57,559 bases of DNA from a virus (taxonomy: Duplodnaviria > Caudoviricetes): IMG/VR virus record IMGVR_UViG_3300005538_000014, positions 1-57,559 of that record, one strand, 5' to 3'. The notes under the pieces are model-generated. The model did no database searches, was not told where the DNA came from, and saw nothing but the letters and a program-made list of their open reading frames with translations. Within the stretch, counting starts at the first letter, position 1; each line of letters opens with the position of its first letter. Positions 34,320 through 56,565 of this stretch are shown here, piece after piece. The translations under genes and the position numbers were made by a program.

Positions 34320-34326
34320 CGTCACG
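34320..34326 (-). promoter_or_regulatory. late-promoter motif (CGTGACG-G-TACGTT-N6-ATG)
   Basis: 13 nt before ATG 34306. Confidence 0.75.
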
Positions 34327-34328
34327 CG

Positions 34329-34700: not shown

Positions 34701-37700
34701 CTTCTTCGTCCGTCGCGTCCGACTCGGCGTACTCTTTGACCGTCATGGCCGCCCTGTCGGCATTTTCATGTTTCATGTTCTCGTAGATCGAGCCAACGCG
34801 CGCACGCGCGATCTCGGGATGCTTCGCCGCGAGGTGTGCGATGGCAGACAGCACTTTGGGCGTCGGCGGCATCGAGAGCAGCGTACGAACCGCCTCTTGC
34901 GGATCGTTACTGGACGCCAGCATGGCCGCGGACAAATCGTGGTGCCCGGCCGAGTGCGACAGCATCGAAAGCGCCTCGCGCACCGTCATTTTTTCACCCT
35001 GCTTGATGCGGGTGTTATATGACCAGCTTCCGCCATAATAGCTGTACGACTTTTCATGGAACGAGCCGGAGAACATCTGTGCCGGATATTTCGGCTGCGT
35101 CGAGGCCCACCCCGTGCCGCCGCGCTGTGGAATCACGCTCGCCAGCGGCGCGTCGAGCTTGCCCTCGCGCTTCGCGTGCGCCCACAGGATGGCGAGACCT
35201 TTCTTGCTCCATCGCGGAACGCCGTCGTACCCAACCTCAACGGTGGGGACCACGGCCGAGATTGCTTCCGGCAGTGACTTGGCATGGCGCGCGGCCGCAT
35301 TCTGCGCGGCCTCAAATTGCGACTCCGCCTCTTTCTCGAATGTCGAGCCGAACACCGCCCGGCCAGCGTCAAGCCAGCGGTTGGACGACGCGCCGTACTC
35401 GCCAGGATACTTGGCTTTGAGCCGCGGCGTCTCGTTACGGCCGCGCTTGCCGCGCCGTCCATAGTCCGGCGTCGACTCAACCGCGAAATCCTTGGCGCGC
35501 TCATCGGCGATGAACGCAGCAATGGCCGCTTTCTTGTTCGCTTCGCTCGGCAGCATGAAATCATGCGTGTCGAGCATTTCCTTCGCCTCATAGCCGTTCG
35601 CGATAACGGCCGCGCCGCCGCCTTTCGGCACCAGAGGCAGTTTGTTCGCGCTCCAACGGTACGCTTTCAGGCCCTCTTTCAGGCGCGCTTGCAGAGAGTC
35701 ATAGTGCTTCTCCACGACCGACTCAGGGAGACGGCTGACCTCTTCCATCGTGGCGGCCTCGTCGACCTCGTTCTCCGCCTCGGCAGCAGCCTTGCGCTCG
35801 AACTCCTTTTTCTCTTCCTCTTCGTTGTAGTGGAAGGTTTTGGCATGAGCGAGTGTAGCCAGCTCGAACGGAATCGAGTTCCCCGTGTCGCCGTACGGCC
35901 GCGCAATGACCGGCGACTCCGAGTCTCCTGGATGGACGACCTTGATCACCCACTTGCCAGCGGCGTCATGCCCTTCGGGAATCTCGAAGCCGACGCCACG
36001 CTCCAAGGCAGCGCCAGTATGCGGATGCACAATGACGGGAGTGGTCGCGTCGAGGGCGTGCTTCGCGGTGAAATGCGGGTTGTTTTGCAGCGACTCTCGG
36101 GTGCGATCGATCTGGACCGCCAGCTTCTTGGCGCTGATCGTGTCCTTGTTTTTGAGCGCCGCGTAGCTCTGCTTCTTCTTTTGCAGCTTCACGAACTCGG
36201 CCGCAGCGTTTTCGCGTTGCTCGGCCTCGTACCGTTGAAGCGCGGCCGTCTTATCGGACTCGAACCGTGCGCGCGCCTCATCAGGATTGGTCGCGAGCAT
36301 GATCATCATTTCGTCGCGGGAAGGCTTGCCGCGTTCGAGGTTCTCGATGCGGTCGCCACCGTTCCAGAGCATGTCCTGCCAATCTTTCTTGGCCGAAACG
36401 GTCTGGTAGTAATAGCCGTCGAAGCTGCCCTTCGCGAGATAGGTGTGGATGCGGACCGCCTCCTTGAGGTTGCCTTGACGAAGACCGCGGCCGTTGCGTT
36501 GCTGAATCGCTGCCGGCGTCCATGGCAAGTCCATGTGGTGGATGTCCGTTGTGCCCTTTTGGAGGTTGACGCCCTCGCCCATCGTAGGAGTGTTGCCGAT
36601 GACGACCTTGATCTTGCCCGCGTTGAAATCGTCGCAAATGTTCTGCCGCTTGGCCGCAGATGGCGCGACTTGCGCGTTGATAATCGCAATCTGTTCTGCC
36701 GGAATGCCGCCCTTGATCAGTGCATCGCGCAGCTTGTCGTGAACCGCGAGGTCTTCCGCAAAGACCACCTGGCCGCCATCCTTTGCACCATTGACGATTT
36801 CTGTCACCGCGGCGTCGTACTTGGGAGAGATCGCGCCCTTGTATTTCTCCCCGTCATACATTTCGAGGTCCATCGCCGCGTTCATCATGCGGCGAATGAC
36901 GGAGAAGATGTGCTCCTCGCCTTTCGCGTCCCGCTTGCCAGCCGCTTCGCGCGCCTCTTCGCGCAACTGTTCGTAAACCGCTTGCTGTTGTGGCGTCATG
37001 TCGACGAGGTGCATGCGCTCATCGCGCTTCGGCAACACCAGCCCGACATCTTCCGCCGTCTTGCGGTCGATGTACTGGCGCATGATGTCGCGCAACTCAT
37101 CCATATTCTTGAAGCCAACCGTGACAAGACGGCGATAGATTCCGCCGTCAATCCCGAGCACGTTTTCCTCGCGGAACTCGCAGAAGCGGTCGAGGAACTC
37201 TTCGCTGTTGCGGATGCCAATTTTCTCGAATGCTTCCGGCGCTACATGGTGCAACATCGAGTAGACTTCGAGCGGGCTGTTTTTCGTCGGCGTCGCGGTC
37301 AGGAGATAGACATTGTTACCACCTTGCTGCGAGCGCACCCACTTGGCCTTGAAATCCATGTCGAGCGCGCGCTTGGACAGCCCGGAGCCGCCAAGGAACA
37401 GTGGCGATTGGCCGAACCTATCGCGAGCCTCGAAGAGGTTTTTATACGCATGCGCTTCGTCGACCATAAGCATGTCGACGCCGAGTTCGTTGAAATAGAT
37501 TGCGTCCGTACGCCTCTGGAAATCGCGCTTCGCGACAGATTGCGCGTGCTGCTCTTCCATCTTCTTTTCGAGCTTGGTACGCGCTTCCCAATCGCCGTGG
37601 TCGGCGCGGCGCTGCAATGCCTCTTCTTTTTCGGCGTTCAGCGACGCCTTGCGCTGCGCCCAAAAATCTTCCGCCGCGTACTGTGCCTTGATCGCAGGAT

Positions 37701-40680: not shown

Positions 40681-40693
40681 GACGCGACTATCC

Positions 40694-40700
40694 CGTCACG
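40694..40700 (-). promoter_or_regulatory. late-promoter motif (CGTGACG-G-GATAGT-N6-ATG)
   Basis: 13 nt before ATG 40680. Confidence 0.75.
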
Positions 40701-40726
40701 TCATGCCGATAGCCTTACCGTTCTTC

Positions 40727-40966
40727 TTACTTTTTCGGGGCTGGCTTCTGCGATGCGGCGTACTGCCGATTGATTTCCCCGACAATTTCGTTGGCGTCGC
40801 GGGCCGACAGCGCCGTGCTGTTCTGGACCGAGCGAACGACGCCAACCCAATCCTGCACTGGCAGGGTAACCGTCAGTGTGGGCGGAGGAGGCGGCGTCGT
40901 AGGAGCGTCGGCCAGGGCTGGCACGGCCAGCGATGCGAGCACAACAAATGCAAGAAACGACCTCAT
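40727..40966 (-). CDS. small secreted protein (79 aa)
   Basis: MRSFLAFVVLASLAVPALA-D signal peptide; AAGGAAA RBS upstream. Confidence 0.7.
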   Translation of the reverse strand: MRSFLAFVVLASLAVPALADAPTTPPPPPTLTVTLPVQDWVGVVRSVQNSTALSARDANEIVGEINRQYAASQKPAPKK

Positions 40967-41034
40967 TGCGTGGCACTTTCCTTTTCGATTGAGCGTCCCA
41001 TTTACGCCACCCCCCTGCCGACAGCCTGACTGTT

Positions 41035-44000
41035 TTACCGGCAGATGACGTTCAGATTGTAAACGATGGACGCCGTGAGCGCCGACGATGTGTTGCTGAT
41101 TGAAACTCCGGTCGTGGTGGACGACACGTCGAACTTTGAAATCGCGGTTGCCGTGTTCCCACCAACGGCAGCAAAGACGCAAACCGGCGCAGTGCTGAAC
41201 GTACCGTTGTTGAAGGCCAGCGTGAAGATCGTTGACGAGGCAACCGGACTCGAACCCTCGGTGAAATTGATATTGAACGCCTGGTCGTCGCCAGTGACGG
41301 AATTGCACGTCGGCGACGTTCCCGCCGATGTACCGAACGTGACGTTGCTGCACGCTTGCGCGGTGCCGCCCTCAATTTCGTGCCCGGTGTGAGTCAACGT
41401 GGTGAACGTGCCGGCCGCCGCCGCCGCGCCACCAATCGCAGGCGGTGACGCAAGGTAGGACGAGAAGCCTGACCCGGACACGGTGCCCGACGCAGACAGG
41501 CTTGTGAATGAGCCAGCCGCGGGCGTGGTGCCCCCAATGATCGAGCCGTTGATGCCGCCAGACCCCCACGTACCCGAATCCGTGCCAGTGAATGTGCCGG
41601 ATTCGAGAACCATGCCAGTCGACTTGACGCGCAGGATTTCGAGTGTTGCCCCCGCGTTATCGGCGCACAGCGAAATGTCGCCCGGCGTATCGCCACAGAT
41701 TCCGGCATGAACGTCAGTGCGGTCAGGGAAGAAGGTCGCTTGGGTCGACGACATCCCAACAGCGCCGTCGAAGGTAGGCCCGTGCGCCGCCTGAGCCTGA
41801 ATGACGTTCGCGCCAGTGACGGACTTATTATTGAAGGAAGAAGATGCGCCGAGCGTAAACCCTGACGAACCCCACGAACCGCCATCCGCGAACGTAACCG
41901 TTCCCGTCATGGTGCCGCCCGAAAGGTGCAACAGCGGCGAGCACGTTACAGCGAGTGTGTTGGCGGTCGAGCAGTCGCCAGAGAGGTTTCCGTTCGTGAT
42001 CGAGCTTGCACCCGAGAACGCTGCAAGCTCGCCAGAGGCGGGAGTGCCGGTAGTGGTTACTGTACCGCTTCCGCCGCCGCCAGTCCCAACGGCAACGCCC
42101 TGGACGTAAATGGCCTGCGCGTTGATGGATCCCGCGCCTTTATCGCCGCCCGTAGGCGAGCCAACCGTTACACCGCCATCGTTGTGTTGGCAGAGGCCAT
42201 CGGCAATGGTCGTAGACCCGGATGGTACAGTGGCAAGACACGCTTCGCCCGGCCAACTGGTCGAGCTAAAAGCTCCCTCTGCGTACAGATGCAGAGCGGC
42301 CGCGAGTCCCGTGTGACCCGTCGTTGTGTCGTATTGACCGGCACCGTTGATGTCAGCAAGCAAGTCGCCAGATTGAACGGCCGTTGGGGATGCAACCGTA
42401 CCGTCAGCCCGCGTGCCGCTAAAAAATGCGGTCGCGGCATAGGCGTCCATTTCCACCCGCGATGGAGACCCTGCCTGGCTTGCACCCTGCAACAACGCCC
42501 CACTCTTGGCCGTTGGGAGATTTTGGCTGCCGAGCGTCACCGTCCCGTTACCTGCCGGCGCGAGGTTGATGCTCCCCACAATGCTGCCATGCGTGTTCGA
42601 CGTGGACTTTACGGACAAGTCACCGTAATCAACCACTGTGCTCGTCGAGTCCTCGCCAAGGCCCTGTACGTCCAACATTGTCCCGCTGGTAAGGGCGCTA
42701 CCGGCCTTGATGACGCCAGTGCCAAACTGATTGGTCCAATTCACGAAGGCGTCGGTAAAGTTTCCGGAGAACCTTGAGCCATCGACAAAGCTGCCCCCGA
42801 ACACGACACTGGCGGAGCTTGACACCGTGCCGGTGAGCGGGAGCGTCAGGTTCACAAGGGTTGAACCCGTGATTGAGCCGCACTCGGATCGCTGATGCGA
42901 CGCGTCGCACTGATAGACGGAGGCAACCGTCTCACCAGTCGGGATTCCGGCCACGCCGGTTACAGTCTGCCCGGTATTGATATTCTTGCCGAGCGTGAAG
43001 AGCATGTACGATTGGCCGGACGGCGCGGAGACCGATGGCGAGTACGTCAGCGAGCCAGCAACGGCGTCAAAGCAGCCGATGGTTTCGCCGCCATCGCACT
43101 TGAAGGCTTCATCGAAATAGCCGAACTCTCCGCCAGCGGCAGTGACCCCCGGAATTGGAGACATCGTGGCGGCGATGATTCCGTTGATGATGTGCGCCGG
43201 GTTCTGGCCGACATATTGCGCGTTCGCGCCGCCCGGCCTCATCCTTACAATGTACCCAAACGACGCCGGGTTCGCGCTCGGGCCACCCTCGGCGACGATG
43301 AGGTCTTCGACAAGGCGGCTCAGGCCGGTATCCTGATCTTCGGCAACAACGTCCTCTTCGACGCCGACGCACGCGCCGGCTGTAAGAGAGGGAAGCCCGG
43401 TCTGATCGTTGCACAGGATATTGCCACCCTCGATAATGGCCGTGCTCGGCGCGTTCTTAAACACGTAGCCATTTGCGCCGTTACAGGTCTGAGCCGAGGA
43501 GGTTTGGGTGGTGTAAACCTGGCACGTTCCTTGGTTCGCGATAGAGGACGACTGCGGCGTGCTGTTGCTCGCGTTGATGATGTTGATCGGCTCGTTCGAG
43601 TAGAGCGGCGCAATCGTCGCGAGCGTAAGGGTGAGTTGGCCCGTAGTGTAGGCCGCCACGGTGTCACCGTTGGGAATGCCGGGGCCGTACACCGCCTGAC
43701 CGACAGCAATGTTCACGTTCGCAGTAATTCCGAACGGTCCGGTAGTGCCAGTCGCGACATAGCCGTTCGGCTTGACGGTTACACCCTTTCCCACGGTGAT
43801 CGTCGACCAGAGACACTCATCGAGAACACCGGACCCGCCAGTGTAGTAATCCTGGCGGTCGCAAACCATGTTCGGCAAGCCACCGGACACAGACTCCGTG
43901 ATCCAGCTTCCGAACGGATTGGTGAACCACGACCGAGAGGTGTCGCCGGACGCCTTGGCACCAATACCAGCGAAATCGCCGTTCGAGTTCTTGACGTGCA

Positions 44001-45051
44001 GCGCGCCAGTGCCGTCGAGGTACAGATTTCCGACAGCGGTTGTCGGGACGGTCAGGCCGCCGACCATGGTGAGGCCGCTCGCCGAACTCCATGTCGAGCC
44101 GTCCGGCATCGCAATCGCGCCCGTGAATGACGGCGAATTGAGTGGCGCGAGTGCGGAGAGAGCAACAGTCGAATCGACGACGTTGCCGTTCGCGTCGTAC
44201 TTTGGAACGTCTCCGGTCGTGGTCGTGCCAGTGGCAAGCTGAACCTTGCTGCCATTGCCCTGTGCGCCAGTGACGCCCGAGAGGATGGAGTCGATGTTCG
44301 CGACGAAAGACGCCGCGATCCCACTGTCAACGACGTTGCCGCTTGCGTCGTACTTGGAGAGGTCGCCGGACGTAGGCGTGCCGCTACCAAGCTGAATCTT
44401 CGGACCATTGCCCTGCGCTCCGGTGATGGCCGAGAGGTTGACCGCACCGCTATTCAGGGAGCCGACACGAACAGTGCATCCCGAATTTGTGACATCGCCA
44501 AGCAACGTCGGAATCTGTCCACACCCAAGCAGGCCGCCGAGACCGGCGATGTTTGGCTGCGCCCACGCCAAGGAGCCATCGCCATTGATGCCGGTAACGA
44601 ACTCGTTTGGAGGGGCCGATTGAAGGAACACGCCACCAAGGGTCGTTGTGCCCGGAGGGGATGGAGGCGCAGCGGTCTGAGGCGCGAAGGCGAGCGTACC
44701 ATCGCTGTTCACTCCGGTGACAACTTGGCCCGGAGGCGCGGATTGCGCGTAAACGCCGCCACGCGTGCTCGCGCTCGGCGGGTTCACGCTGGACGGCCGC
44801 ATCACATAAGCGTTGTTGCCAGCGTCATGAATGCAGTTCACGCCGTCGTCGACACAGCCCGCGCCGTAATAGGCGTAATAGACGCCAGCAATGTTGACGA
44901 GCGGCGTCTCGTTATAATTGTGCGTTCGGAATGCCGCGATCGATGGGATAACGTATTGCGGCTGAATTTGCGCGACGGCGGCCGACGCAAGAAAACATGC
45001 CGCAATGGCGAGGGCGGGGCGCGTGAAAGCGCGGCGGAGCGTTTCGAGCAT
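41035..45051 (-). CDS. 1338-aa fibre/adhesin-like protein with N-terminal signal peptide
   Basis: MLETLRRAFTRPALAIAACFLASAAVA-Q; Gly/Ser/Thr-rich; APLNSPSFTG fibre motif; internal duplicated units; many paired Cys. Confidence 0.75.
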   Translation of the reverse strand: MLETLRRAFTRPALAIAACFLASAAVAQIQPQYVIPSIAAFRTHNYNETPLVNIAGVYYAYYGAGCVDDGVNCIHDAGNNAYVMRPSSVNPPSASTRGGVYAQSAPPGQVVTGVNSDGTLAFAPQTAAPPSPPGTTTLGGVFLQSAPPNEFVTGINGDGSLAWAQPNIAGLGGLLGCGQIPTLLGDVTNSGCTVRVGSLNSGAVNLSAITGAQGNGPKIQLGSGTPTSGDLSKYDASGNVVDSGIAASFVANIDSILSGVTGAQGNGSKVQLATGTTTTGDVPKYDANGNVVDSTVALSALAPLNSPSFTGAIAMPDGSTWSSASGLTMVGGLTVPTTAVGNLYLDGTGALHVKNSNGDFAGIGAKASGDTSRSWFTNPFGSWITESVSGGLPNMVCDRQDYYTGGSGVLDECLWSTITVGKGVTVKPNGYVATGTTGPFGITANVNIAVGQAVYGPGIPNGDTVAAYTTGQLTLTLATIAPLYSNEPINIINASNSTPQSSSIANQGTCQVYTTQTSSAQTCNGANGYVFKNAPSTAIIEGGNILCNDQTGLPSLTAGACVGVEEDVVAEDQDTGLSRLVEDLIVAEGGPSANPASFGYIVRMRPGGANAQYVGQNPAHIINGIIAATMSPIPGVTAAGGEFGYFDEAFKCDGGETIGCFDAVAGSLTYSPSVSAPSGQSYMLFTLGKNINTGQTVTGVAGIPTGETVASVYQCDASHQRSECGSITGSTLVNLTLPLTGTVSSSASVVFGGSFVDGSRFSGNFTDAFVNWTNQFGTGVIKAGSALTSGTMLDVQGLGEDSTSTVVDYGDLSVKSTSNTHGSIVGSINLAPAGNGTVTLGSQNLPTAKSGALLQGASQAGSPSRVEMDAYAATAFFSGTRADGTVASPTAVQSGDLLADINGAGQYDTTTGHTGLAAALHLYAEGAFSSTSWPGEACLATVPSGSTTIADGLCQHNDGGVTVGSPTGGDKGAGSINAQAIYVQGVAVGTGGGGSGTVTTTGTPASGELAAFSGASSITNGNLSGDCSTANTLAVTCSPLLHLSGGTMTGTVTFADGGSWGSSGFTLGASSSFNNKSVTGANVIQAQAAHGPTFDGAVGMSSTQATFFPDRTDVHAGICGDTPGDISLCADNAGATLEILRVKSTGMVLESGTFTGTDSGTWGSGGINGSIIGGTTPAAGSFTSLSASGTVSGSGFSSYLASPPAIGGAAAAAGTFTTLTHTGHEIEGGTAQACSNVTFGTSAGTSPTCNSVTGDDQAFNINFTEGSSPVASSTIFTLAFNNGTFSTAPVCVFAAVGGNTATAISKFDVSSTTTGVSISNTSSALTASIVYNLNVICR

Positions 45052-47094: not shown

Positions 47095-48231
47095 TCAGCC
47101 CGGACCCAACTGTTCATCCATCCATTTGAGGAATGCGGGATCGCCGCGGCGCTCTGGCTCTTCCACTGGCACCCATCGGCCGCGGCAATTCGGGTGCATC
47201 ACCCCGGCCGCCGGCCACCACAATTCGTGCGGCTCGCGATCAACGAGGCCATCTTGAGTTTTTTTCCGCGCCGACGCCGAGCGGCCGACGTTCGTTTTGC
47301 CCGGCCACACTTGCGTGTCGCCATCCTTGTCCGGCGCGTCAGGCGCGACAACCTCGAAAATCTTGCCGTTGATCGAGCGGCAGAATGAGCATGCCCCTTG
47401 GTACTTTTCGATGCGCTTCACTTTCCGTCCGGGAGTGAGGGACGCGATCAGACCTTGGTTCGCCAATTCGCCGGTCTCGGTCAGGGCGATACGACGCCAG
47501 TCGCGGTTCCAGTCGGCGAACACATCGCCGAGCCGGGTTTCGAGCGACTCCCGCGCGCCCGGCGTTTGCATGCGCGCCTGTTCGAGATAATCCATGATGT
47601 TGCGGCGCAGCCGGTGACGCTGCGCGTCCGTGAGCGCGACCACGTTCTCAGCGGCATGCGCGTTGCCATACTCCATGATGGCGCGTTGGTGCGGCGTGAG
47701 GCCGAACAGCGCGTCAGCGGCCTCGATCGTCGGCGGCATTGCAACGAGCGCGTTGTCGACGGCGGCCGTCGAAATATCGCGCGCCTGGCGCGCCGCGGCC
47801 ATCCGGCCCAAAATGATTGCGCGGGTCGCAAGCCACTCCGCTTCCGTTCGCAGATCATCGAGAGGGAGGTACCGCTGCACAAGGTAATCGATCAGGAGCG
47901 CCCAATCGTCATAGGTGAAAGTGTCGGGATGCAGCGACTCCAGATAGAGCTTGGTAAGCGCGATCTCCGCTTCCGACCATCGAGCCATTGCCCCAACCGG
48001 GCGCGGCGGCCGTTCGTGGGTGTGCTTGTGCTTTGACCCGGACAGCCACGAACCCAATTCAGCGCGAACGCTTGCGATGCGAGCAAGACCGCGCTCTGTG
48101 AAGAGTTCTACAATGCGTCGAATGTAAGGGTTTTCGTGCGGCCGCCAGATGTCGGAGCCGTCTTCACTTTCAGCCTTGTAGAAGGCATCGAGCACGCAAT
48201 GCGCGTGCTCATCGCAGACATCGAAGAGCAT
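47095..48231 (-). CDS. MuF/SPP1 gp7-like minor head protein
   Basis: RDWRRIALTE, ACSFCRSINGK, MHPNCRG. Confidence 0.85.
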   Translation of the reverse strand: MLFDVCDEHAHCVLDAFYKAESEDGSDIWRPHENPYIRRIVELFTERGLARIASVRAELGSWLSGSKHKHTHERPPRPVGAMARWSEAEIALTKLYLESLHPDTFTYDDWALLIDYLVQRYLPLDDLRTEAEWLATRAIILGRMAAARQARDISTAAVDNALVAMPPTIEAADALFGLTPHQRAIMEYGNAHAAENVVALTDAQRHRLRRNIMDYLEQARMQTPGARESLETRLGDVFADWNRDWRRIALTETGELANQGLIASLTPGRKVKRIEKYQGACSFCRSINGKIFEVVAPDAPDKDGDTQVWPGKTNVGRSASARKKTQDGLVDREPHELWWPAAGVMHPNCRGRWVPVEEPERRGDPAFLKWMDEQLGPG

Positions 48232-48244
48232 CGCGCAATGGTAG

Positions 48245-48251
48245 GATCACG
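48245..48251 (-). promoter_or_regulatory. variant late-promoter motif (CGTGATC-C-TACCAT-N6-ATG)
   Basis: 13 nt before ATG 48231. Confidence 0.65.
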
Positions 48252-48253
48252 AC

Positions 48254-48466
48254 CTATTCGGCGGCGTGCCTTTGTTCGGTGAGTGCTTCCGTGTCAGCCG
48301 CCTCGCCCGCCTCTTTGGCGGTAATCTGGTCGCCGAATTTGATCGGGGCGATGCGATCACCAGTGTATTCGTGCCACTCGCCGTCCACCTTGACGTGGCT
48401 CACGCCTCTGGCCCCTTCGGGCTGGCGGAAGGTCGCGCCGTCTTTTTCGTAGTAGAGAAATTTCAT
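48254..48466 (-). CDS. 70-aa protein, candidate immunity/antitoxin partner
   Basis: Strong GAGGAGG RBS; immediately follows the RelA/SpoT-domain gene; function inferred from position. Confidence 0.6.
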   Translation of the reverse strand: MKFLYYEKDGATFRQPEGARGVSHVKVDGEWHEYTGDRIAPIKFGDQITAKEAGEAADTEALTEQRHAAE

Positions 48467-48507
48467 GTTGACCTCCTCACCACAGATATACCCATGCGGC
48501 GGTGCCG

Positions 48508-50322
48508 CTACAAGTGGGCCTTCTCATATTTTGCCCTTGCTTCGCGATACATTCGTTGCTGAACGTCAACAACCCGCTGGTATTCCGCCTCCGCATCGGC
48601 GGGCCACGGTTTGTCATCGTGGTCCTTGCCGTACTTTGCCTCCAAATCGCGCTCAATCTCGTAGAACTTGTGCGCCTCGTGCTTGGTCTGCACCATGGAT
48701 TTCACGTTCACCTGGATTTCGGCGATCACGCCGTTTTCCATGCGCGCGAACATCTGAATGTCGCTGTACCCCGCCTTGGTTGGCTTCTGAAAGCGGTCCT
48801 TGAACGGCTTGGCGAGCACCATGCCATTTTTCTTCAACCGCTCGATGGTGTGATACACCTCTTCGAGACTGTCGACCGCAATCGTGCAGCGCACTGTGTC
48901 CATCAGCCGGGACCAGTCGCCCTTGTAATCGGTGTTCACCTTTTGCGTTGCGCGATCCTCTTTTTTGAGGGGCGCGATGAAGAGCATGCTTCCCGGAGTA
49001 TTCCACTCCTCTGGCGAGACATCTTCCGGGGATTTGTTCATCCGGCGAATGCCAAGCTGAGTGCAGACCCCCTTGGGACTGGCGAGCCATTTGGTGAGGT
49101 GTTCGAGCGCGGGCTTTGACGCCTTATAGAGCGCATCCTTAGTGGCATGAGGCTGGACCACCACGGTTGGCAACTCTTTCCAACCGTACCGCTTCGCCGC
49201 GGTGTATGTGCGGTTACCGTCGATGATGGTATAGGTGCCGTCGGCGTTCGGGGTGACCTTGATGGGTGCGCGCCTGGCAATCTTGCCGTGGTACGACGCC
49301 ATCATCAGCTTCGGCGCGTTTTCCCCTCCGTGCTTGTTCTCTTCGTCGGTTTTTGAGGAGCGCAGCTTGTCGAGCGCAATGATGCTCGTGCCGCCGTCCA
49401 TCTTGAAGAACCGCTCGTGCTCTTCCGGCATGGACTCCGGCGCGGGAAGCACGCCTTTGACGCGCTTGCTGTACGCCTTGTCGTCCTCGCCATGCAGTCG
49501 CGGCGGATAGGCCGGAGGTTTCGGCGGGGCCTTGCTCGCGCCCGCGTGTTGCTTTGAGCTATTGTTATCCGGCTTTGCGTTACCTGCCGGCTTCTTCACC
49601 GGGCCGCGCTGCAATTCGTTCCAGTACACCTCATGCTTCTTGCCGGAGGCATCGCGAACGGTAGCGCCATCCTGGCCGACATCGGTTACCTCGCCAGAGC
49701 CAGCGGTCTCACCAATTTTGAATTGCACGGAGTCGCCAATCTTTGCCGGCGTCTTTTGCTGCGGCTTCGCCTTCTCCGGCCTCGCCTCGCGCTCTGGCGC
49801 TTTGACCTTCGGAGTCGTGCGCTTCCATCGCTTTGTTTGATGGCCTTGCTTGTCGGTGACATCCTGCAACGACAGGCCGGGCCGGTTTTTGATGGCCTTG
49901 ATAACGTCGATGGGCACGGTGCCGAACACCAGCGCAATCGGCGCGATCGACTTGCGGACCGGCCCCTCTTCGCCGCTGTAAACGTCGGGGTCAGGATCCT
50001 CGATATAGCGCCGCCGTCCGCTCGGATCCGCGGCGATGAAGCCGTCCTCGCCCTGATCGACGATAGTGTACCCTTGTTGCACCTTCACGCGATGACCGAG
50101 AACTTGCTCCCATCGCACCCGGTATCGCTTCTGGTCGTGCGCGCAATCAATCACGCATCCGTCGCGGCCGTGCGCCATAACCTTGCCATGCACAGGCCCA
50201 TGCTTCGGATGGCGAAAGTACACCTCATCGCCGCGCTCCACGTCGGGAGTCGGCAACTCCTCCTCGGTTTCCCGCTTCGCGCCGGGCTTACCGAGTTTAT
50301 TGATGTTATTTGCCGAGCGCAT
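48508..50322 (-). CDS. multidomain protein: SH3/KOW-like repeats + ParB/Srx-like domain + RelA/SpoT-like nucleotidyltransferase
   Basis: APIKV...YTIIDGNRT..AAK..G...LP (ParB-like); PLKKEDRATQKV...LMDTVRCTI...KDRF...GYSDI...AEIQV...AHKFYE (RelA/SpoT synthetase-like). Confidence 0.8.
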   Translation of the reverse strand: MRSANNINKLGKPGAKRETEEELPTPDVERGDEVYFRHPKHGPVHGKVMAHGRDGCVIDCAHDQKRYRVRWEQVLGHRVKVQQGYTIVDQGEDGFIAADPSGRRRYIEDPDPDVYSGEEGPVRKSIAPIALVFGTVPIDVIKAIKNRPGLSLQDVTDKQGHQTKRWKRTTPKVKAPEREARPEKAKPQQKTPAKIGDSVQFKIGETAGSGEVTDVGQDGATVRDASGKKHEVYWNELQRGPVKKPAGNAKPDNNSSKQHAGASKAPPKPPAYPPRLHGEDDKAYSKRVKGVLPAPESMPEEHERFFKMDGGTSIIALDKLRSSKTDEENKHGGENAPKLMMASYHGKIARRAPIKVTPNADGTYTIIDGNRTYTAAKRYGWKELPTVVVQPHATKDALYKASKPALEHLTKWLASPKGVCTQLGIRRMNKSPEDVSPEEWNTPGSMLFIAPLKKEDRATQKVNTDYKGDWSRLMDTVRCTIAVDSLEEVYHTIERLKKNGMVLAKPFKDRFQKPTKAGYSDIQMFARMENGVIAEIQVNVKSMVQTKHEAHKFYEIERDLEAKYGKDHDDKPWPADAEAEYQRVVDVQQRMYREARAKYEKAHL

Positions 50323-52090
50323 AAATCGGCTTCAACCCGAAGCGCGACGGATCAATGGCCTTGGCGAAACTGTCGTCCGACTGGCCGAAATCGCCCTCGC
50401 GCTTCTCTGGATTGCCCCCTTGTTCTTGCCCCGGCTCACCTTGATCCTGTCCGGGCGCGGGCGGTCCGCCAGGCTGATCACCCTGCAACGGCTCGCCCGG
50501 ATTGCCGTCGTCCGGCATTCCAAAGTCCGCTTGCTGCGCTTGCATTTCTTGCTGCTTGAATTGCAGCCATGGAGAGATAAGCGCCGGATTGAGCGGGCAA
50601 TCGCCCATCACGTCGTCGACCTCCTCATCGCCCTGCCGACGCCGTGCCTCATTCCATGTTTGCGTCAGCTTCCGCATTTCAAACCGCTTGTCCGCGTCCT
50701 CACCGTCGAGGCCAACGAACCTGAGCGAGTATTGCGGCGAGAACGGACGGATGAAGAAATCGGTGTACTCGCACGCGAAATGCGAGAGCAGCGGTTCGAG
50801 ACCTTTATCGTTCGAGGAGGTGATCTTCTGTTCGGTGTCGCTGCCAGACAGTGGCGCGCGGCCGGAGGTGAAACTTTCCATCGACACCTCTTCCGGCGCA
50901 ATCCCGTAGATGGCACACGCGAGAGAGGTGAGAAGACTCATCCATTTGCCGAACGCCATTTCCGTCATTTGCGCGCCGACCTCAAGGAAATTGGCCTTTG
51001 CGTCGGCGTCGCGCGATGTCAGGATCGGCAGATTGTGGACATTCTGGATTCCGCGCACCATCGCGACCCACAGGCGCTTGAACGCCGCGAGGTCGGCGTT
51101 GTCGTAATTTCCGACAAGCTGCAGAATGCCGCGAGGGATTGAGTTCTTCGTGAAATACGACCCGTTGTACTCCAATGTATTCAGGAGGTGCGTGACGACG
51201 CGGATGAGCATTTCCGTTTCGCCATAGCCGTATCCGCACGCGAGCACGTCTGTACGCGGGTTGCGAACCTCGTACGTCAGATCGTAATGGGTGTACGCCG
51301 TGCGGATGTTCCCCTGAATAACTTGCAGGGCGAACACCTCGTCGTCGCCGTCATAGCCCTCTTCCGTGCAGAGCCGCACGGTCGCGCCGTCGACGGCGTA
51401 AATGCCATCCAGGCCAAGCGACTTGTCCGACTTGAATTGTGTTTCGACTGGCGCGGCGTCCATCGCGAGGGAATCGCGGATGCGCTTCGCCATGAATTGC
51501 GGGAAGGTGTCACGCTTCAAGAGCTTGCGCTTGCGCGGGTCGTCCTCCCACCCGCAATTCAGAACGAACTTTTGCAGAAGGTCGATGGACTGCTTGTTCT
51601 CGGCATTGAGTTCGTGATTCTTGTCAATGTGGTGAATGACGAAGCCGGGAGCTTCCGGTTCAAGTTGCGGCCGGCAGAAGCGCAGCACTTGCCGGATGCG
51701 CGTCAGGACGATGGCGTTCAGGATCGGCGTTTGATCCACCATTGTACGCATCGAATCGAAATTGAGCAGGCCCGGCCGATCCCAATACTGCCCTTGCGCC
51801 GCAATCTGGAAATCGTCGAGCATCACCGATTGCATGCCGCCCTTGCGGCTTTGCGACGGGTATTTGACCTGGTTGATCGACTTGTTGAACGCCTCGGCTG
51901 CAATCTCTTGCTGGATGAAATCGATCACTGGCTGAATTTCAGCGCGCGGAATGAGCGCGGACTCAAGTGTACTTTTGTTGATTTCGGCTTGCGCGTCGTA
52001 GCGTTCCGTGAATGGCGCGCGCGGGCTGAATGCGACCGACCAAACGCCGGGAGCCGCGGTAGCAGCGGCCGTTTCCTTTTTGCGAGCCAT
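50306..52090 (-). CDS. portal protein
   Basis: RDSLAMDA, YAVDGATVR, VRNPR...GYGYGETE, YFTKNSIPRGIL, CAIYGIAPEEV, KGLEPLL, TWNEARR. Confidence 0.9.
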   Translation of the reverse strand: MARKKETAAATAAPGVWSVAFSPRAPFTERYDAQAEINKSTLESALIPRAEIQPVIDFIQQEIAAEAFNKSINQVKYPSQSRKGGMQSVMLDDFQIAAQGQYWDRPGLLNFDSMRTMVDQTPILNAIVLTRIRQVLRFCRPQLEPEAPGFVIHHIDKNHELNAENKQSIDLLQKFVLNCGWEDDPRKRKLLKRDTFPQFMAKRIRDSLAMDAAPVETQFKSDKSLGLDGIYAVDGATVRLCTEEGYDGDDEVFALQVIQGNIRTAYTHYDLTYEVRNPRTDVLACGYGYGETEMLIRVVTHLLNTLEYNGSYFTKNSIPRGILQLVGNYDNADLAAFKRLWVAMVRGIQNVHNLPILTSRDADAKANFLEVGAQMTEMAFGKWMSLLTSLACAIYGIAPEEVSMESFTSGRAPLSGSDTEQKITSSNDKGLEPLLSHFACEYTDFFIRPFSPQYSLRFVGLDGEDADKRFEMRKLTQTWNEARRRQGDEEVDDVMGDCPLNPALISPWLQFKQQEMQAQQADFGMPDDGNPGEPLQGDQPGGPPAPGQDQGEPGQEQGGNPEKREGDFGQSDDSFAKAIDPSRFGLKPIYALGK

Positions 52091-52104
52091 GCGCGCGACT
52101 ATGC

Positions 52105-52111
52105 CGTCACG
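52105..52111 (-). promoter_or_regulatory. late-promoter motif (CGTGACG-G-CATAGT-N7-ATG)
   Basis: 14 nt before the portal ATG 52090. Confidence 0.75.
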
Positions 52112-52113
52112 AC

Positions 52114-52151
52114 AAAACGGCCCGGCGAGGAATCAACCTCACCGAGCCGTT
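52114..52151 (-). terminator. rho-independent terminator of the ssb/RNA transcript
   Basis: - strand AACGGCTCGGTGAGG-ttgatt-CCTCGCCGGGCCGTT-TT. Confidence 0.7.
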
Positions 52152-52266
52152 CCGCGAGCGAGGCCCCCTGCCACGCTCTTCCCCTTCGCCAGCCACACCC
52201 TTACAGGGACACCTAACCGCCATGCGGCTTCGGGTTTGAGTGGCTGGCTCCCCCCTGAGTATTTGT

Positions 52267-52333
52267 GCGGCGCTCTACCGGCTGAGCTACCCGGCCCGTA
52301 GGCCGGAGCGGGACTCGAACCCGCGACCTCCGC
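52267..52333 (-). ncRNA. circularly permuted tRNA-like module A
   Basis: - strand GCGG-AGGTC-GCGGG-TTCGAGT-CCCGC (T arm)-TCCGGCC-TACG-GGCCGGG (acceptor stem closed by a tetraloop)-TA-GCTC-AGCCGGTA-GAGC (D arm)-G-CCGC. Confidence 0.85.
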
Positions 52334-52336
52334 TTT

Positions 52337-52416
52337 GCGCTGCTCTACCAGACTGAGCTACGGACAGATGCCTATAGCTGCATCCGCCGACTGGATTTGA
52401 ACCAGTGACCTCGCGC
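52337..52416 (-). ncRNA. circularly permuted tRNA-like module B
   Basis: - strand GCGC-GAGGTC-ACTGG-TTCAAAT-CCAGT (T arm)-CGGCGGATGC-agctatag-GCATCTGTCCG (extended, looped acceptor)-TA-GCTC-AGTCTGGTA-GAGC (D arm)-A-GCGC. Confidence 0.82.
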
Positions 52417-52430
52417 TTCCGTACCGTTCG

Positions 52431-52883
52431 TTAGAACGGAATCTCGTCGTCCTCCGGGGTGAATTGCTGTGTGCGCGATTGCGTCGCGCCGGACGAACGG
52501 TTGCCGCCGCCGCTTTCGCTGCCGCCGTTGCTGTCCTTGCCGCCGAGGAGAACCAGCTTGGAGTTAAAGCCGTTCAGCACGATCTCGGTCGTGTACCGAT
52601 CAACGCCGTCCTTGTCGGTCCACTTGCGCGTCTGCAACTGGCCTTCGACGTAAACCTTGGAGCCTTTCTTGAGGTACTTTTCGGCGATACCCGCGAGGCC
52701 GTCATTGAAGATCACGACCCGGTGCCACTCGGTTTTCTCTTTGCGCTCGCCTGACGACTTATCTTTCCAGGACTCCGACGTGGCGAGGCTCAAATTGACG
52801 ATTGTGCCGCCCGACTGCGTTTTCCGCGCCTCGGGATCCTGACCGAGGTTTCCGATCAGCATTACCTTGTTCAACGAAGACAT
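52431..52883 (-). CDS. ssb: single-stranded DNA-binding protein
   Basis: [16 protein letters not shown]...[10 protein letters not shown]...TEWHRVV...[16 protein letters not shown]...DDEIPF. Confidence 0.97.
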
Positions 52884-53053
52884 CGATTTTCCTTGAGGAA
52901 AGCGTTGTCCCGGCGAGTGTCGGCCAAGCCTGCACACTCGCCGGGACGGTCCCCCCACTTTTGCCCCCGGTGGGTATCGGGGTTGGGTTCTGCTCCCCTT
53001 CTGGCTCACCACTTACGCAGGTGACTCGCTTCCCCGAGGTGACTTGACCTTGC

Positions 53054-53060
53054 CGTCACG
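53054..53060 (-). promoter_or_regulatory. late-promoter motif (CGTGACG-G-CAAGGT) driving a leadered ssb transcript
   Basis: Intergenic consensus match just after the dnaN stop; predicted start near 53040. Confidence 0.65.
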
Positions 53061-53075
53061 ACTGGTGGAGAGCAG

Positions 53076-54188
53076 CTACAATCTCATCGGCATGACCACG
53101 CCAAGCGTTTCCGCGTCACCTTCGCCCTCGATCAGCGCAGGGCTTCCCGCGTCCGCGAGGTAGAACGTGGCGTTTTCCGCATTGAGCGACGACAGGATGT
53201 TCCGCATGTACGTCGGATTGAAACCGACCTCGATTGGGGAGCCATCGTATGATGCCGTGAGCTTGTCCGCGGCGTCTCCGTGATCCGGGTGCCGGCACGA
53301 GAGTTCGAGCGGCTCGCCACGTTTCAGGCCCAACCCGACAGGGCTGCGATTTTCCCCGACAAAGGCAACGCGGTCGATCGCATCGATAAGCGCCTTGCGG
53401 CCCACGTTCATCGTGTTCTGACCGCGCGGCGGGATCACCCGGTCGTAATCAGGAAAGGTGCCGTCGATCAGCTTCGATGTCAGATTGGTTTCCCCGAACT
53501 CGAAACGGATTTTCGTATCCGTCACGCGCACCGTCACGTACTCGGAGTACGAGTCGATAAGACGCCGGAGTTCGAGCACTGCCTTGCGCGGAACGATAAC
53601 GTGCGGCATGCCAGCGGCACCGTCCGGCAGCGCGATGTCGCTCCGCATCAGAACGTGGCCATTCGTCGCCACTGACCGCAAACGGTTTGCACCGGACGGC
53701 GCATGGAAATAGATGCCGTTCAGGTAGTACCGTGTCTCTTCGGTTGAAATCGCGATCTTGCTTTTGTCGATCAGCGAGCGCATGTCCGCGCCAGCAACGT
53801 CAAAGATGTGGACGCCGCTCTCGGGCCACGTCATGACAGGGAAATCTTGCGCTGGCAGTCCGGCGACCTGGTAGCGTGCATCGCCCGACACCACGGACGT
53901 TCGCATGCTTTCCGACGCACTCACCTTGACTTGCGAGCCAGGGGGCAGCCGTTTCAGGATGTCGTGCAGCATCGCGGCCGGCAGCGTCGTACGCCCGCCA
54001 GTCTCTACCATCGCCGGGATGCTATCGATGATCTCGATGTCGAGGTCCGTTGCCGTAACGTGCAACCCATCTGGCGACGCATTCAGCAATACGTTTCGCA
54101 GGATTGGAATGACGCCCTTCTTGTCGACGACCCCGGTGACATGATTGAGAACCTTCAAGAACGCGTCGCGTTCAGCCACGAATTTCAT
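53076..54188 (-). CDS. dnaN: DNA polymerase III beta sliding clamp
   Basis: IPILRNVLL, ATDLDI, AISTEETRYYLNGIYFH, VATNGH, SKLIDGTFPDYDRVIP, GFNPTY, VVMPMRL. Confidence 0.95.
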   Translation of the reverse strand: MKFVAERDAFLKVLNHVTGVVDKKGVIPILRNVLLNASPDGLHVTATDLDIEIIDSIPAMVETGGRTTLPAAMLHDILKRLPPGSQVKVSASESMRTSVVSGDARYQVAGLPAQDFPVMTWPESGVHIFDVAGADMRSLIDKSKIAISTEETRYYLNGIYFHAPSGANRLRSVATNGHVLMRSDIALPDGAAGMPHVIVPRKAVLELRRLIDSYSEYVTVRVTDTKIRFEFGETNLTSKLIDGTFPDYDRVIPPRGQNTMNVGRKALIDAIDRVAFVGENRSPVGLGLKRGEPLELSCRHPDHGDAADKLTASYDGSPIEVGFNPTYMRNILSSLNAENATFYLADAGSPALIEGEGDAETLGVVMPMRL

Positions 54189-54535
54189 TTGCCGTTTTCC
54201 CTGGTTTGAAGGTCCGCAACGATCTCGGAAACATCGCCCGCGTTGCGGCAGTCTGCGAGGAGGCGACCAAAGGTGCCAACCATAGCGCCGTCTTTGGACG
54301 GATCGGTTGTGCATGCGAGAATGTATGCAGCAGCCGACATAAAGCCGGAAGCAAGATCAGCGCACGCTTCCGCATCGCCGCTCACGACGACCTGCTCAGA
54401 TATATCGAGCAACTGTCGCAGGATCACTTGCGCCGGGGCCACAGGCCCGGCGATTACGCCTTCTGAATTTGCCACAACAGCCCCGTTGTGTTTCACACCG
54501 GGCAAGAGAACACCAGCAGAACGCCCAATCGTCAA
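54185..54535 (-). CDS. hypothetical protein
   Basis: Probable TTG start overlapping the terminase stop; stop overlaps the dnaN start. Confidence 0.5.
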   Translation of the reverse strand: MTIGRSAGVLLPGVKHNGAVVANSEGVIAGPVAPAQVILRQLLDISEQVVVSGDAEACADLASGFMSAAAYILACTTDPSKDGAMVGTFGRLLADCRNAGDVSEIVADLQTRENGK

Positions 54536-56565
54536 GCCGCGGACTTGACGACAAAAAGGTGACAACCTTGGTCGTTCGCGCCGACAAGCAGATCGCGGTC
54601 GCGGCAACGCGAGCCGTTGGCATCAAATGAGTAACAGGCTCCGCACACCTCACCTCTCGGCAGCGGGTCGAGCATTTGCAGCACAGGAATTGGCAATCCT
54701 GGCATATTCTTCTCGATGCTTTGCACGCGGCGCTCTTCGACGGTCGAGCCAGCTTGCGGGATTGTGAGAGACGTGGTGCCCCACGCGCGCGCCCAAGCCA
54801 CATCGCAGAGCATGTTCGCGTACGAGAAATGAGGATCGATTCCGACCTTCACGACGCGCGTACGGAACTCCTTGATCCCGACCGGCTTCTTTTTTCCCTC
54901 GCTCTCCACCTTGCGCTCCACAATGAGCGCCGTCTTGGTGAAATGCAGAAACACGCGTTCGCGCAGGATTGCGACGCGGCGCTTCTCACCCTTTTCGATG
55001 ATGTCTTGCATCAGGCCGTCAGGATCGGGGAAAAGACACGTTTGATTGAGCATGCGCGCAAAAGCCACTTGCATGCACTTGTACTGATTGAGCGTGACGA
55101 CATACCGCTCCCGCTCCTCGAACTCGGTTTTCCTGTCCGCCTTGGTAACAACCGCGTCTTTCCAGACAAGCATGTCGTCTTTCAAGTCGGCGTAGTCAGC
55201 CAGGAACACGCGGCCGAGGTGACGGTTGGCAAATCTGTGCGCGTCGTTAAAATTTGGATTCTTTTCAACACAACATACCGCGACGCCATAGCGGTCCATC
55301 AATTCGGAGCACCGCGCGAACGGATCGGGGTCGTAAATCTCCTCGGCGTGAATGGTTGCTTGCCGACCATCGGCAAGACGCTCCTTAATCAGTACAACAT
55401 TGAATCGGCCCATCTGGTCGATGCCCATGTATGTGTTGACGCCGCGGTCGCGCCACTGTACGCCTGCGGCGGCCCCGGCCGCGACGCACTTGTTGAGCAC
55501 CTCTTGGTTAATCGGAATTTGCGACGGGTCAGAGTACGGCCGGCCGAGCACGCGATTGTAGAAATTCTGCATGCTGGTAGCGCGCGTGTACTTGTCGAGG
55601 ATTTCCCGCGCCGACACCGTCGGTGACAACATCTGGTGAAACGAAATGCTTTTGATGCCCCGGTAGATCAGGGCGTCGTCATCTTCCGCCCGCCACTCCC
55701 CGCATTGCGGGTCGTCGATCCACCCACCGCAATGAACGCAGCAATAGCGGTAGTCATCGATCGTGGGGTCGAATTTGATGCACGCCGGGAACGCCTCATC
55801 GAGGCGTTCGTGCCGACCGCACGACTTGCACAGCGTCCAGAACGAATGCCGAGTGCCAAGTTTGTACCAGTGGTGAATATCGGCGTCCGGCCAGTTTGCC
55901 GTCGAACCCATGAACTGAAAGCGGATTTCTGAGCCTGACATACGCTCGGCTGTCTTTTCTACGTCATCGATTGTCATTTCCTGTACCTCATCGAAGCACA
56001 GTACATCGACAGGGAACGATTCCGTCATGGCTTTACCGGATGTCCAGAAGAAGCCGAAATTGGAATCGCCCATCGTGCGGATCATTACGTTGCCTTCACC
56101 GCGCTTTGGTGCGCCGTCGTCACCCTTGCGGAGCAACTTGTACGCGTCGGTGGTCCGCATGATTGGCATGAAGCGGTTGGTGGAGATTGCCGCGGCCAGC
56201 TTCATATCCGGCAGGTAGATGCCGACGAAGCATGGCATGAATTTCAGGCCGTAATAGATGGCCGCCAGCATTTCGAGAACGGTGAACCCCACCTGAGCGC
56301 ATTTCATCAAGACCAGGGTGAGACCGTACGCCTCTTCACGCGTGGTGGGGAATTGATCGTAGACCCATGCCATACACGGACGATTGTCCAACTTGAACGG
56401 CTTGCGGTCGACCTTCAACCCTTCCGTGGCGAGCTTCTCGCACCACTGACGGAATGTCATTTCCTCGGGGATGAATTTCTGCCCATCCGTCAGGCCAGGC
56501 CCGAATTTGGTTTCGAGCCGGGCGAGAACCTTACCGAGATCGAGGTTGGCTTTACCTACACTCAT
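54532..56565 (-). CDS. terminase large subunit (lambda gpA-like)
   Basis: LMKCAQVGFT, VLCFDEV Walker B, GSTA, CKSCG/CVHCG Zn ribbons, FYNRVLGRPY, YMGIDQ nuclease motif, DPHFSYA. Confidence 0.9.
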   Translation of the reverse strand: MSVGKANLDLGKVLARLETKFGPGLTDGQKFIPEEMTFRQWCEKLATEGLKVDRKPFKLDNRPCMAWVYDQFPTTREEAYGLTLVLMKCAQVGFTVLEMLAAIYYGLKFMPCFVGIYLPDMKLAAAISTNRFMPIMRTTDAYKLLRKGDDGAPKRGEGNVMIRTMGDSNFGFFWTSGKAMTESFPVDVLCFDEVQEMTIDDVEKTAERMSGSEIRFQFMGSTANWPDADIHHWYKLGTRHSFWTLCKSCGRHERLDEAFPACIKFDPTIDDYRYCCVHCGGWIDDPQCGEWRAEDDDALIYRGIKSISFHQMLSPTVSAREILDKYTRATSMQNFYNRVLGRPYSDPSQIPINQEVLNKCVAAGAAAGVQWRDRGVNTYMGIDQMGRFNVVLIKERLADGRQATIHAEEIYDPDPFARCSELMDRYGVAVCCVEKNPNFNDAHRFANRHLGRVFLADYADLKDDMLVWKDAVVTKADRKTEFEERERYVVTLNQYKCMQVAFARMLNQTCLFPDPDGLMQDIIEKGEKRRVAILRERVFLHFTKTALIVERKVESEGKKKPVGIKEFRTRVVKVGIDPHFSYANMLCDVAWARAWGTTSLTIPQAGSTVEERRVQSIEKNMPGLPIPVLQMLDPLPRGEVCGACYSFDANGSRCRDRDLLVGANDQGCHLFVVKSAA

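Follow-up and report, generated by a model that had tools for sequence, protein, structure and literature searches.

A Tas1/Apk-like pyrophosphokinase with a probable Tis1-like partner on a candidate virion-cargo carrier in the head-gene block of a tailed phage

The closest described counterparts of the system reported here are Tas1 (Apk1) of Pseudomonas aeruginosa, a toxic synthetase delivered through PAAR and type VI secretion (T6SS) and held in check by its cognate inhibitor Tis1 (PDB 6OX6), and Apk2, which is fused to MuF in the Apk2/IapK/Aph1 clusters of temperate phages (PMC10083569; Paulet et al. 2025, PMC12226406). According to the text of Ahmad et al. (2023, PMC10083569), MuF-fused Apk2 is always accompanied by a Tis1-like gene and sometimes by a hydrolase, and both the virion carriage of such (p)ppApp synthetase toxins and their benefit to the phage are stated to be open questions. 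In the current study, we analysed a linear virus record from IMG/VR (IMGVR_UViG_3300005538_000014; 57,559 bases, with an estimated completeness of about 62%), the whole of which is called the window below, and within it a 604-residue protein and a 70-residue partner encoded among the head genes. The 604-residue protein ends in a synthetase whose nearest characterised relative is Tas1/Apk, and not a housekeeping enzyme or one of the (p)ppGpp-making small alarmone synthetases, while the 70-residue protein is probably its Tis1-like immunity protein. The reading that we favour, with moderate confidence, is that the two are an adenosine-type pyrophosphokinase carried as virion cargo and its immunity partner, and that the carrier is neither that of Apk1 (PAAR) nor that of Apk2 (MuF). 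The features on which the argument turns are as follows.

48508-50322, minus strand: gene of the 604-residue polyvalent cargo candidate (N-terminal carrier, ParB/Srx-like domain and Tas1-like RelA/SpoT homologue [RSH] synthetase)
49603-50250, minus strand: N-terminal carrier module, residues 25-240, made up of small SH3/KOW/Tudor-like beta units
49888-49980, minus strand: disordered linker, residues 115-145, with two [LMIV]xK[AS] motifs; putative head-protease sites at a module boundary
49147-49482, minus strand: ParB/Srx-like domain, residues 281-392; accessory, and absent from many homologues, for example that of Bordetella phage PHB04
48511-49146, minus strand: RelA/SpoT-type synthetase, Tas1/Apk-like, residues 393-604 (PF04607, phmmer, profile and Foldseek)
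48472-48478, minus strand: ribosome-binding site GAGGAGG of the 70-residue gene, read directly
48254-48466, minus strand: 70-residue partner gene, from the list of open reading frames (ORFs); probable Tis1-like immunity protein, a split-off version of the domain fused elsewhere
50306-52090, minus strand: portal (PF04860 at 36.1 bits, under a cut-off of 39.1; phrog_15361 at 1e-29; phrog_12 at 1.4e-25)
47095-48231, minus strand: 378-residue unfused MuF-like minor head gene, by family-profile comparison

An earlier note on this DNA, written from its letters alone, had described the 604- and 70-residue genes between portal and an unfused MuF gene and had remarked on the strong ribosome-binding site of the small gene; the ORF list confirms the coordinates, and GAGGAGG indeed lies 5 nucleotides before the ATG. 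The portal gene is immediately upstream of the 604-residue gene and overlaps it by 17 nucleotides.

With the Apk2 clusters (PMC10083569; PMC12226406, as their texts describe them), the locus shares a Tas1-like synthetase near head genes, a constant Tis1-like gene and, in relatives, an occasional HD hydrolase. It differs in that the MuF-like gene is separate and downstream, in that the carrier is an unrelated beta-barrel module accompanied by a ParB/Srx-like domain, in that the partner is often fused in cis, and in that the hydrolase of relatives is MESH1-like rather than Aph1-like and the syn3 motif is of another kind. Tas1-Tis1 is the nearest solved relative of both proteins, with a weak match on the partner side, yet identity is only about 20%, and delivery there is by PAAR/T6SS whereas here the synthetase sits on a phage head-gene carrier. 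Neither PAAR nor Phage_Mu_F matched the 604-residue protein at E<=0.1 in Pfam, and since it lacks both a PAAR and a fused MuF domain we do not file it under Apk1 or Apk2; the earlier description of a multidomain effector (ParB-like plus RSH) on a non-MuF carrier is thus borne out.

Two further comparisons concern enzymes packaged in phage heads. P1 Dar and T4 Alt and IP reach the head by way of a targeting segment; the prohead protease trims them, and they enter the host along with the DNA. The window has a DarB-like gene in the same head block, and one relative of the carrier (P0023) gives a weak DarA_C match of 18.3 bits; no sequence kinship between the carrier and either DarA or the capsid-targeting sequence of T4 was demonstrated. 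The polyvalent proteins of Iyer, Burroughs, Anand, de Souza and Aravind (2017, PMC5512222), which in the text of that paper are thought to be packaged and injected, combine RelA/SpoT, ParB-type, InPase, MuF and portal-fused domains, as do relatives of the protein studied here. The 604-residue protein is polyvalent in the sense that at least two effector domains stand on one polypeptide among head genes. It differs from them in having no MPTase (Pfam scans of the protein and its relatives found neither an MPTase domain nor any Pfam LPD or DdrB-ParB family), so that processing, if it occurs, would instead fall to the head maturation protease.

The synthetase was identified by sequence, profile and fold alike. 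PF04607 (RelA_SpoT) matched residues 454-554 at 29.4 bits against a cut-off of 27 (33.6 bits in the genome search), and together with the RSH fold matches this upholds the C-terminal RelA/SpoT synthetase-like domain of the earlier note. In a phmmer search of all PDB sequences, Tas1 (6ox6_A, 2e-7) was the sole match below E 0.01; with a 17-sequence profile Tas1 reached 1.1e-15, 12 orders of magnitude ahead of the next RSH enzyme at 1.3e-3. The comparison of structures that the earlier note had suggested for the domain boundaries also put Tas1 first (Foldseek E 1.5e-8, template-modelling [TM] score by target 0.63), followed by RelP (1.0e-6), with RelQ and Rel also matched; CapRel came far lower (9erv, E 5.8e-5; 7ztb, 1.5e-4), below the nucleotide-making small alarmone synthetases. 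Residues K453, D475, R478, D521, E535, Q537, H551 and Y554 are invariant in 98/98 family members, K461 and Y519 are kept in 97/98, and the motif residues of the family align with the KxxxRAxQK, DxxR, GYS and EIQVN of Tas1. We refer to these motifs as basic syn1, DxxR syn2, GYx syn3 and ExQ syn4, names that follow PMC12226406 in part. Given the invariant motifs and the first place of Tas1 in all three kinds of comparison, we conclude that the enzyme is under selection and lies on the Tas1/Apk side of the superfamily. A reading of the domain as a dead enzyme was considered and rejected, since the catalytic-motif residues do not vary among the 98 members.

The 70-residue protein matched no family in Pfam, PHROG, NCBIfam or PADLOC. 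In 19 proteins, however, a homologous domain is fused to the C-terminal side of the synthetase (BLAST to 1e-12; hidden Markov model [HMM] 1e-20 to 1e-28), all from the homologue set of the 604-residue protein and related to one another. Either as a separate ORF of 56-95 residues or as a fused domain, the partner follows the synthetase in 28 loci among 41 viral contigs plus PHB04, and it is present in 26/26 carrier-synthetase loci with downstream sequence. A census of payloads, in which 136 further cluster representatives from the best 150 of 315 were classified, gave the same picture: 53/136 bear the synthetase, 15 of these 53 with a fused partner domain, and 26/136 bear zeta, with the partner domain in 0/26 (the carrier stands alone in 52/136, mostly short and probably truncated, and 5/136 have an unassigned tail). 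Moreover, the partner HMM matched 0/66 ORFs in 8 zeta-type loci that share the synteny from portal to MuF-like gene. Being absent from zeta-type proteins and loci, the partner is specific to the payload and not to the carrier; the functional tie between the small gene and the synthetase that the earlier note had supposed is thereby supported on three sides, by the 26 loci, by natural fusions and by the zeta-type loci.

An AlphaFold2 (AF2) model of the 70-residue family reached a predicted local distance difference test (pLDDT) score of 79.6. Searched with Foldseek over 350,542 chains, it placed Tis1 (6ox6_B) at rank 1 (E 0.39, probability 0.80, 22% identity, a weak match in absolute terms); VIA-align over 48,161 chains did the same (Z 4.5, root mean square deviation [rmsd] 3.4, 54/76 residues, 20% identity), with the next chain at Z 3.5, and a further structure comparison again gave Tis1 rank 1 at Z 4.5. 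These low scores gain weight because Tis1 is the cognate inhibitor of Tas1, the synthetase's own top match. The model thus suggests that the 70-residue protein is probably a Tis1-like immunity protein. No pZFD or CapRel chain was among its listed structural matches. In the scheme laid out in the text of Dominguez-Molina et al. (PMC11782079), Tis1-like domains neutralise makers of (pp)pApp at the acceptor site and pZFD neutralises tRNA-modifying toxic small alarmone synthetases (toxSAS) at the donor site; judged by this division, a partner of Tis1 type speaks for a nucleotide product and not for tRNA.

The rest of the 604-residue protein falls into separable modules. BLAST against 62 homologues distinguishes residues 1-270, found in all, a ParB-like region at about 285-392, found in some, and the synthetase at 392-604. 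An AF2 model from 60 sequences (mean pLDDT 85.7) is disordered at residues 1-19, 115-140, 176-189 and 241-260, has beta units at 33-79, 86-108, 150-168 and 198-233, and is well modelled without a break between 281 and 604. The earlier note had read three related SH3/KOW-like units from repeat motifs, which lie at residues 46-55, 87-94 and 210-219; all fall within beta-rich segments of this confident model, and weak Spt5/KOW fold matches (Foldseek) and a weak ProQ_C match (14.5 and 17.2 bits) agree with that view. The carrier module otherwise belongs to no Pfam, PHROG or NCBIfam family, PHROG and NCBIfam matches being confined to ParB, RSH and the weak ProQ, and its neighbours in the ESM Atlas are uninformative (all TM <0.5). 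Its family comprises 315 cluster representatives at E<=1e-3; in the phage collection, carrier or synthetase was found only in PHB04.

The ParB/Srx-like domain proposed by the earlier note has partial support, from a sub-threshold ParB_N match (residues 353-390, 22.2 bits, Pfam cut-off 26.3) and a family-profile match to the ParB/Srx-fold kinase SbnI at 1.2e-4, with Noc/ParB at about 0.01. R351, D368, G369 and T372 are invariant in 17/17 sequences. The arginine-rich nucleotide-binding box of ParB/Srx proteins reads GERRxR, from which the DGN(R/G)T of this family differs.

What the carrier bears is evidently exchangeable. In fifteen homologues the N-terminal module is the same but the synthetase is replaced by Zeta_toxin PF06414 (72-89 bits in those scanned). 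Longer carrier-headed polyproteins, with up to five modules on one chain, include P0118 (1082 residues) and P0122 (1430 residues), both with the anti-CBASS enzyme Acb1 (104.2 and 104.6 bits); among these two and P0077, P0157, P0113, P0197 and P0070 we found Acb1, InPase, HD_4, RadC-like JAB and SNF2-type helicase modules, and in one locus (L012) a single chain unites the carrier with synthetase, partner domain and an InPase of 144.6 bits. The relatives are PHB04-like myoviruses of about 90 kb and metagenomic contigs; PHB04 is the cultivated carrier of the family (gp034/gp033/gp032, gp034 being the homologue of the 604-residue protein). Among 23 neighbouring ORFs scanned, 10 were HD_4 SpoT-type hydrolases of about 176-256 residues, directly after the partner gene. 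In PHB04 itself (L001, 9652-10925), synthetase and partner are followed by a MESH1-like HD hydrolase, a calcineurin-like (NinI-type) phosphoesterase and then the MuF-like gene.

The position of the locus is conserved. The portal gene is directly upstream of the carrier in 25/28 related loci, the other 3 being cut by the contig end, and a MuF-like gene is downstream in 23/28; the order from portal through carrier-payload to MuF-like gene is conserved. The 378-residue protein itself has no Pfam or PHROG match. By hhalign, its family profile matched two Pfam-verified Phage_Mu_F segments (79%, E 1.7e-5; 89%, E 2.5e-6), 6/19 of its relatives match phrog_581 ("minor head protein") and 4/19 match PF06152, and the deposited annotation of its counterpart in Yersinia phage fHe-Yen8-01 is "particle associated protein." There is therefore moderate support for a MuF-like minor head protein, as the earlier note had supposed in placing an unfused MuF gene after the small gene. 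In cargo-free relatives (fHe-Yen8-01 and Pseudomonas phage Dolphis), the order is portal, 378-residue homologue, protease, scaffold and capsid, from which it follows that the locus of the 604- and 70-residue genes is one of two sites in the head block where extra genes have been inserted.

Distant copies of the synthetase are themselves joined to head proteins. One is fused to Portal_Mu (L037, 4459-6615; 106.2 + 30.8 bits), one to Phage_portal (L041, 2590-6606; 72.4 bits), and two occur in Phage_Mu_F polyvalent proteins (L034, 2201-8488, 66.2 bits, with ART-PolyVal as well; L039, 4492-9726, 56.3 bits). From the conserved slot, these portal and MuF fusions, the polyvalent type of domain mixture and the MuF-like neighbour, we read the 604-residue protein as probable head cargo: it sits where cargo would be expected, and by analogy it may be delivered with the capsid. 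A separate zeta-toxin gene follows the fused synthetase gene in L034.

A possible means of processing is offered by short [LMIV]xK[AS] motifs, which recur in the disordered linker of the carrier (residues 115-145) and in three proteins of the head-assembly block, as follows.

27368-28249, minus strand: head maturation protease (phrog_1028, 1.7e-29), the presumed cutter of [LM]xK[AS] sites
26775-28249, minus strand: the same protease together with a 197-residue scaffold-like protein, which lies between it and the major head protein
25179-26699, minus strand: major head protein

The scaffold-like protein has 7 copies against 0.87 expected, and the protease 6 against 0.48; 0/300 composition shuffles reach 7 for the former and 0/300 reach 6 for the latter. 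The major head protein has one copy, LQKA at residue 32, and all 50 predicted proteins together have 53 against 30.8 expected. In the 604-residue protein, the internal RKS and VIKA sites pointed out by the earlier note are VRKS122-125 and VIKA140-143; K124 and K142 are invariant in 17/17 aligned homologues, and pLDDT is below 50 at residues 115-140 around them. Fused homologues have a motif between synthetase and partner domain in 19/19 cases and another just after the partner domain in 16/19; the copies of longer polyproteins sit where one module meets the next, and the InPase of P0113 is inserted exactly at the carrier linker. On this distribution, [LMIV]xK[AS] is a candidate cleavage motif of the maturation protease of this phage group, and the protease may cut proteins of the 604-residue type into modules, detaching a fused immunity domain inside the capsid. 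Two points tell the other way: the 604-residue protein has only a modest excess (4 copies against 1.49 expected, with 9/300 shuffles reaching 4), and since the fused proteins are related to one another, the 19/19 does not represent 19 independent events. A 449-residue protein without a family also has 4 copies, against 0.68 expected (1/300 shuffles).

Under the reading that we favour, the N-terminal beta-barrel carrier would bring the effector into the prohead, beside portal and MuF, its payload being the ParB/Srx-like domain and a Tas1/Apk-type RelA/SpoT pyrophosphokinase. The Tis1-like protein would block the acceptor site of the enzyme during virion assembly. Once ejected into a new host and free of its inhibitor, the enzyme would most likely move pyrophosphate from ATP to adenine nucleotides, giving (p)ppApp; the resulting loss of ATP and arrest of purine synthesis may serve takeover or counter-defence early in infection. 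Several results weigh against this proposal. The structural match to Tis1 has a Z score in the range that the tool itself calls common, and a partner-family profile found nothing significant among PDB sequences (best E 0.37). No HD_4 hydrolase was found in the window, in a record of which only some 62% is present. In relatives the hydrolase is closer to MESH1 (4.6e-36 in PHB04) than to the (p)ppApp hydrolase entry 7smg (only 6e-4) and, being MESH1-like and not Aph1-like, cannot separate guanosine from adenosine products. Finally, syn3 in the 604-residue protein reads D-I-Q, and in the family it combines the invariant D521 (98/98) with Q, L, N or M at 523, so the adenosine-type GxN signature is absent from the 98 members. 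According to the text of PMC12226406, GxN marks the adenosine type and SxH the guanosine type, and exchanging the motifs does not switch specificity. With D521 invariant and GxN absent, the acceptor could differ from that of Tas1 and Apk2; we therefore treat the adenosine product as probable and not as settled, the signature itself being no proven determinant.

The same aspartate, fitting neither SxH nor GxN (PMC12226406, in its text), is one reason to consider that the synthetase uses another acceptor altogether (GTP/GDP, giving a (p)ppGpp-type signal, or some other nucleotide, such as a host immune signal) and serves counter-defence or takeover without being a toxin that drains ATP. The MESH1-like character of the associated hydrolase would suit such an enzyme, as would the Acb1, InPase and HD_4 modules of the same carrier polyproteins, which set the payload among enzymes of nucleotide signals; in the text of PMC5512222, Iyer et al. 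proposed for polyvalent RelA/SpoT domains an alarmone signal that reprograms host transcription. Yet no other characterised enzyme comes nearly as close as Tas1, a partner that resembles an inhibitor and is obligate speaks for a product harmful to the cell making it, and Tis1-like partners are reported, in the text of PMC11782079, with makers of (pp)pApp. We consider this alternative rather doubtful. A different view is that the pair never enters the virion and acts within the cell, for toxin-antitoxin control, exclusion or addiction, its place in a head operon being incidental. A toxin with its cognate inhibitor is the classic toxin-antitoxin layout, and the packaging of the MuF-Apk2 toxin is itself unproven in the account of PMC10083569. 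Against such a module stand the strict conservation of the slot between portal and MuF-like gene, the fusion of one synthetase lineage to two portal families and to MuF, the swapping of payloads on a carrier that is also joined to counter-defence domains, and the protease-type motifs at module borders; PADLOC, moreover, matched no defence-system model among the five genes. This we regard as distinctly unlikely. A CapRel-like fused defence protein was rejected on the phage head operon, the portal and MuF fusions and the same PADLOC result.

Least likely of all, in our estimation very improbable, is a tRNA-CCA pyrophosphorylating toxSAS like CapRel, FaRel2 or PhRel2, which would stop translation and for which tRNA-like RNAs nearby would be decoys or targets. 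The fold is common to toxSAS, CapRel (9erv, 7ztb) is among the fold matches, and tRNA-like modules lie about 2 kb away. The hydrolases of relatives do not help here, as HD-type enzymes cannot separate a tRNA from a nucleotide reading; small alarmone hydrolases of this type reportedly also reverse tRNA pyrophosphorylation. Nonetheless, CapRel ranks far below Tas1, the PDB searches gave no sequence-level match to CapRel or FaRel2, and the partner's best structural match is Tis1, with no pZFD among the matches listed. The RNAs themselves point elsewhere. ARAGORN found 0 tRNAs in the window and Rfam 0 matches at gathering; a permissive scan of 52050-52480 gave two matches to YrlA (Y RNA-like, RF02553) at 45.6 and 28.1 bits (gathering 69) and, beside these tandem matches (52265-52410, minus strand), an overlapping partial tRNA match at 27.8 bits (gathering 29). 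What the earlier note had called CCA-less tRNA mimics are thus sub-threshold YrlA-like modules in the 340-base gap between portal and the single-stranded DNA-binding protein (SSB) gene. In five related loci, such modules accompany the zeta-type locus (1/1) and none of the synthetase-type loci (0/4, with limited flanks), and the link to the synthetase that the earlier note had put forward as speculative is not supported. Its broader suggestion of a nucleotide-signalling or tRNA-modifying effector survives in part: the Tas1/Apk-like enzyme and Tis1-like partner agree with an effector of this kind, while the tie to tRNA-like RNAs is not supported. The zeta-type locus L044 has, at 2531-2668, similar YrlA-like modules and also four true tRNAs upstream of the portal.

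If virion cargo is indeed the right description, a bolder version of it can be entertained, though only tentatively and with the balance of our opinion against it as a whole. The carrier, a double-barrel module, would then join PAAR and MuF as a third means of delivering alarmone-synthetase toxins, with polymorphic payloads (synthetase, zeta, InPase, Acb1, HD hydrolase, RadC/SNF2), the head protease would cut every module border and arm the toxin within the capsid by freeing the Tis1-like domain, and the syn3 aspartate might signify an acceptor nucleotide unlike that of any characterised RSH enzyme.

As far as we have searched, the carrier family, the alternation of synthetase and zeta, the cis-fused Tis1-like domain and the protease-type motifs at borders are apparently not in print, although figures and supplements could list such architectures. 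Neither the carrier nor the Tis1-like partner domain is described in the text of PMC5512222, figures and supplements aside. The main text of an mBio 2025 survey of delivery domains contains neither "ParB" nor "Apk3," and its passages on MuF, portal, phage and capsid describe no such carrier, though its figures or supplements could list one. The family would be a cleaner test bed for virion carriage than has been available, with a cultivated phage (PHB04), toxin and MuF as separate genes and natural portal fusions. With payloads swapped and candidate cleavage sites conserved, packaging, processing and arming become directly checkable. It also brings toxins of the alarmone type together with Acb1 and other counter-defence enzymes, possibly virion-delivered, on a single polyprotein scaffold.

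The remaining features of the head block, in gene order, are these.

54532-56565, minus strand: large terminase, which heads the gene order
52431-54314, minus strand: SSB and a DnaN-like sliding clamp, between large terminase and portal
Between SSB and portal, in minus-strand order: non-coding stretch of 340 bases
After the 378-residue gene, minus strand: genes of 223, 449 and 1338 residues without a family, the last Gly/Thr-rich
In the second island, minus strand: 2006-residue DarB-like methyltransferase/helicase (phrog_10089, 1.2e-125; phrog_11801)
After the DarB-like gene, minus strand: 1500-residue helicase (phrog_62) and a DNA methyltransferase

The SSB and DnaN-like clamp pair is an unusual break in the packaging and head block. 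A second cargo island, at 28545-45051 on the minus strand and flanked by the genes of the MuF-like protein and the head protease, holds the DarB-like protein, the helicase, the methyltransferase and the three proteins without a family. PHB04 also encodes an RtcB RNA ligase, upstream of its portal gene.

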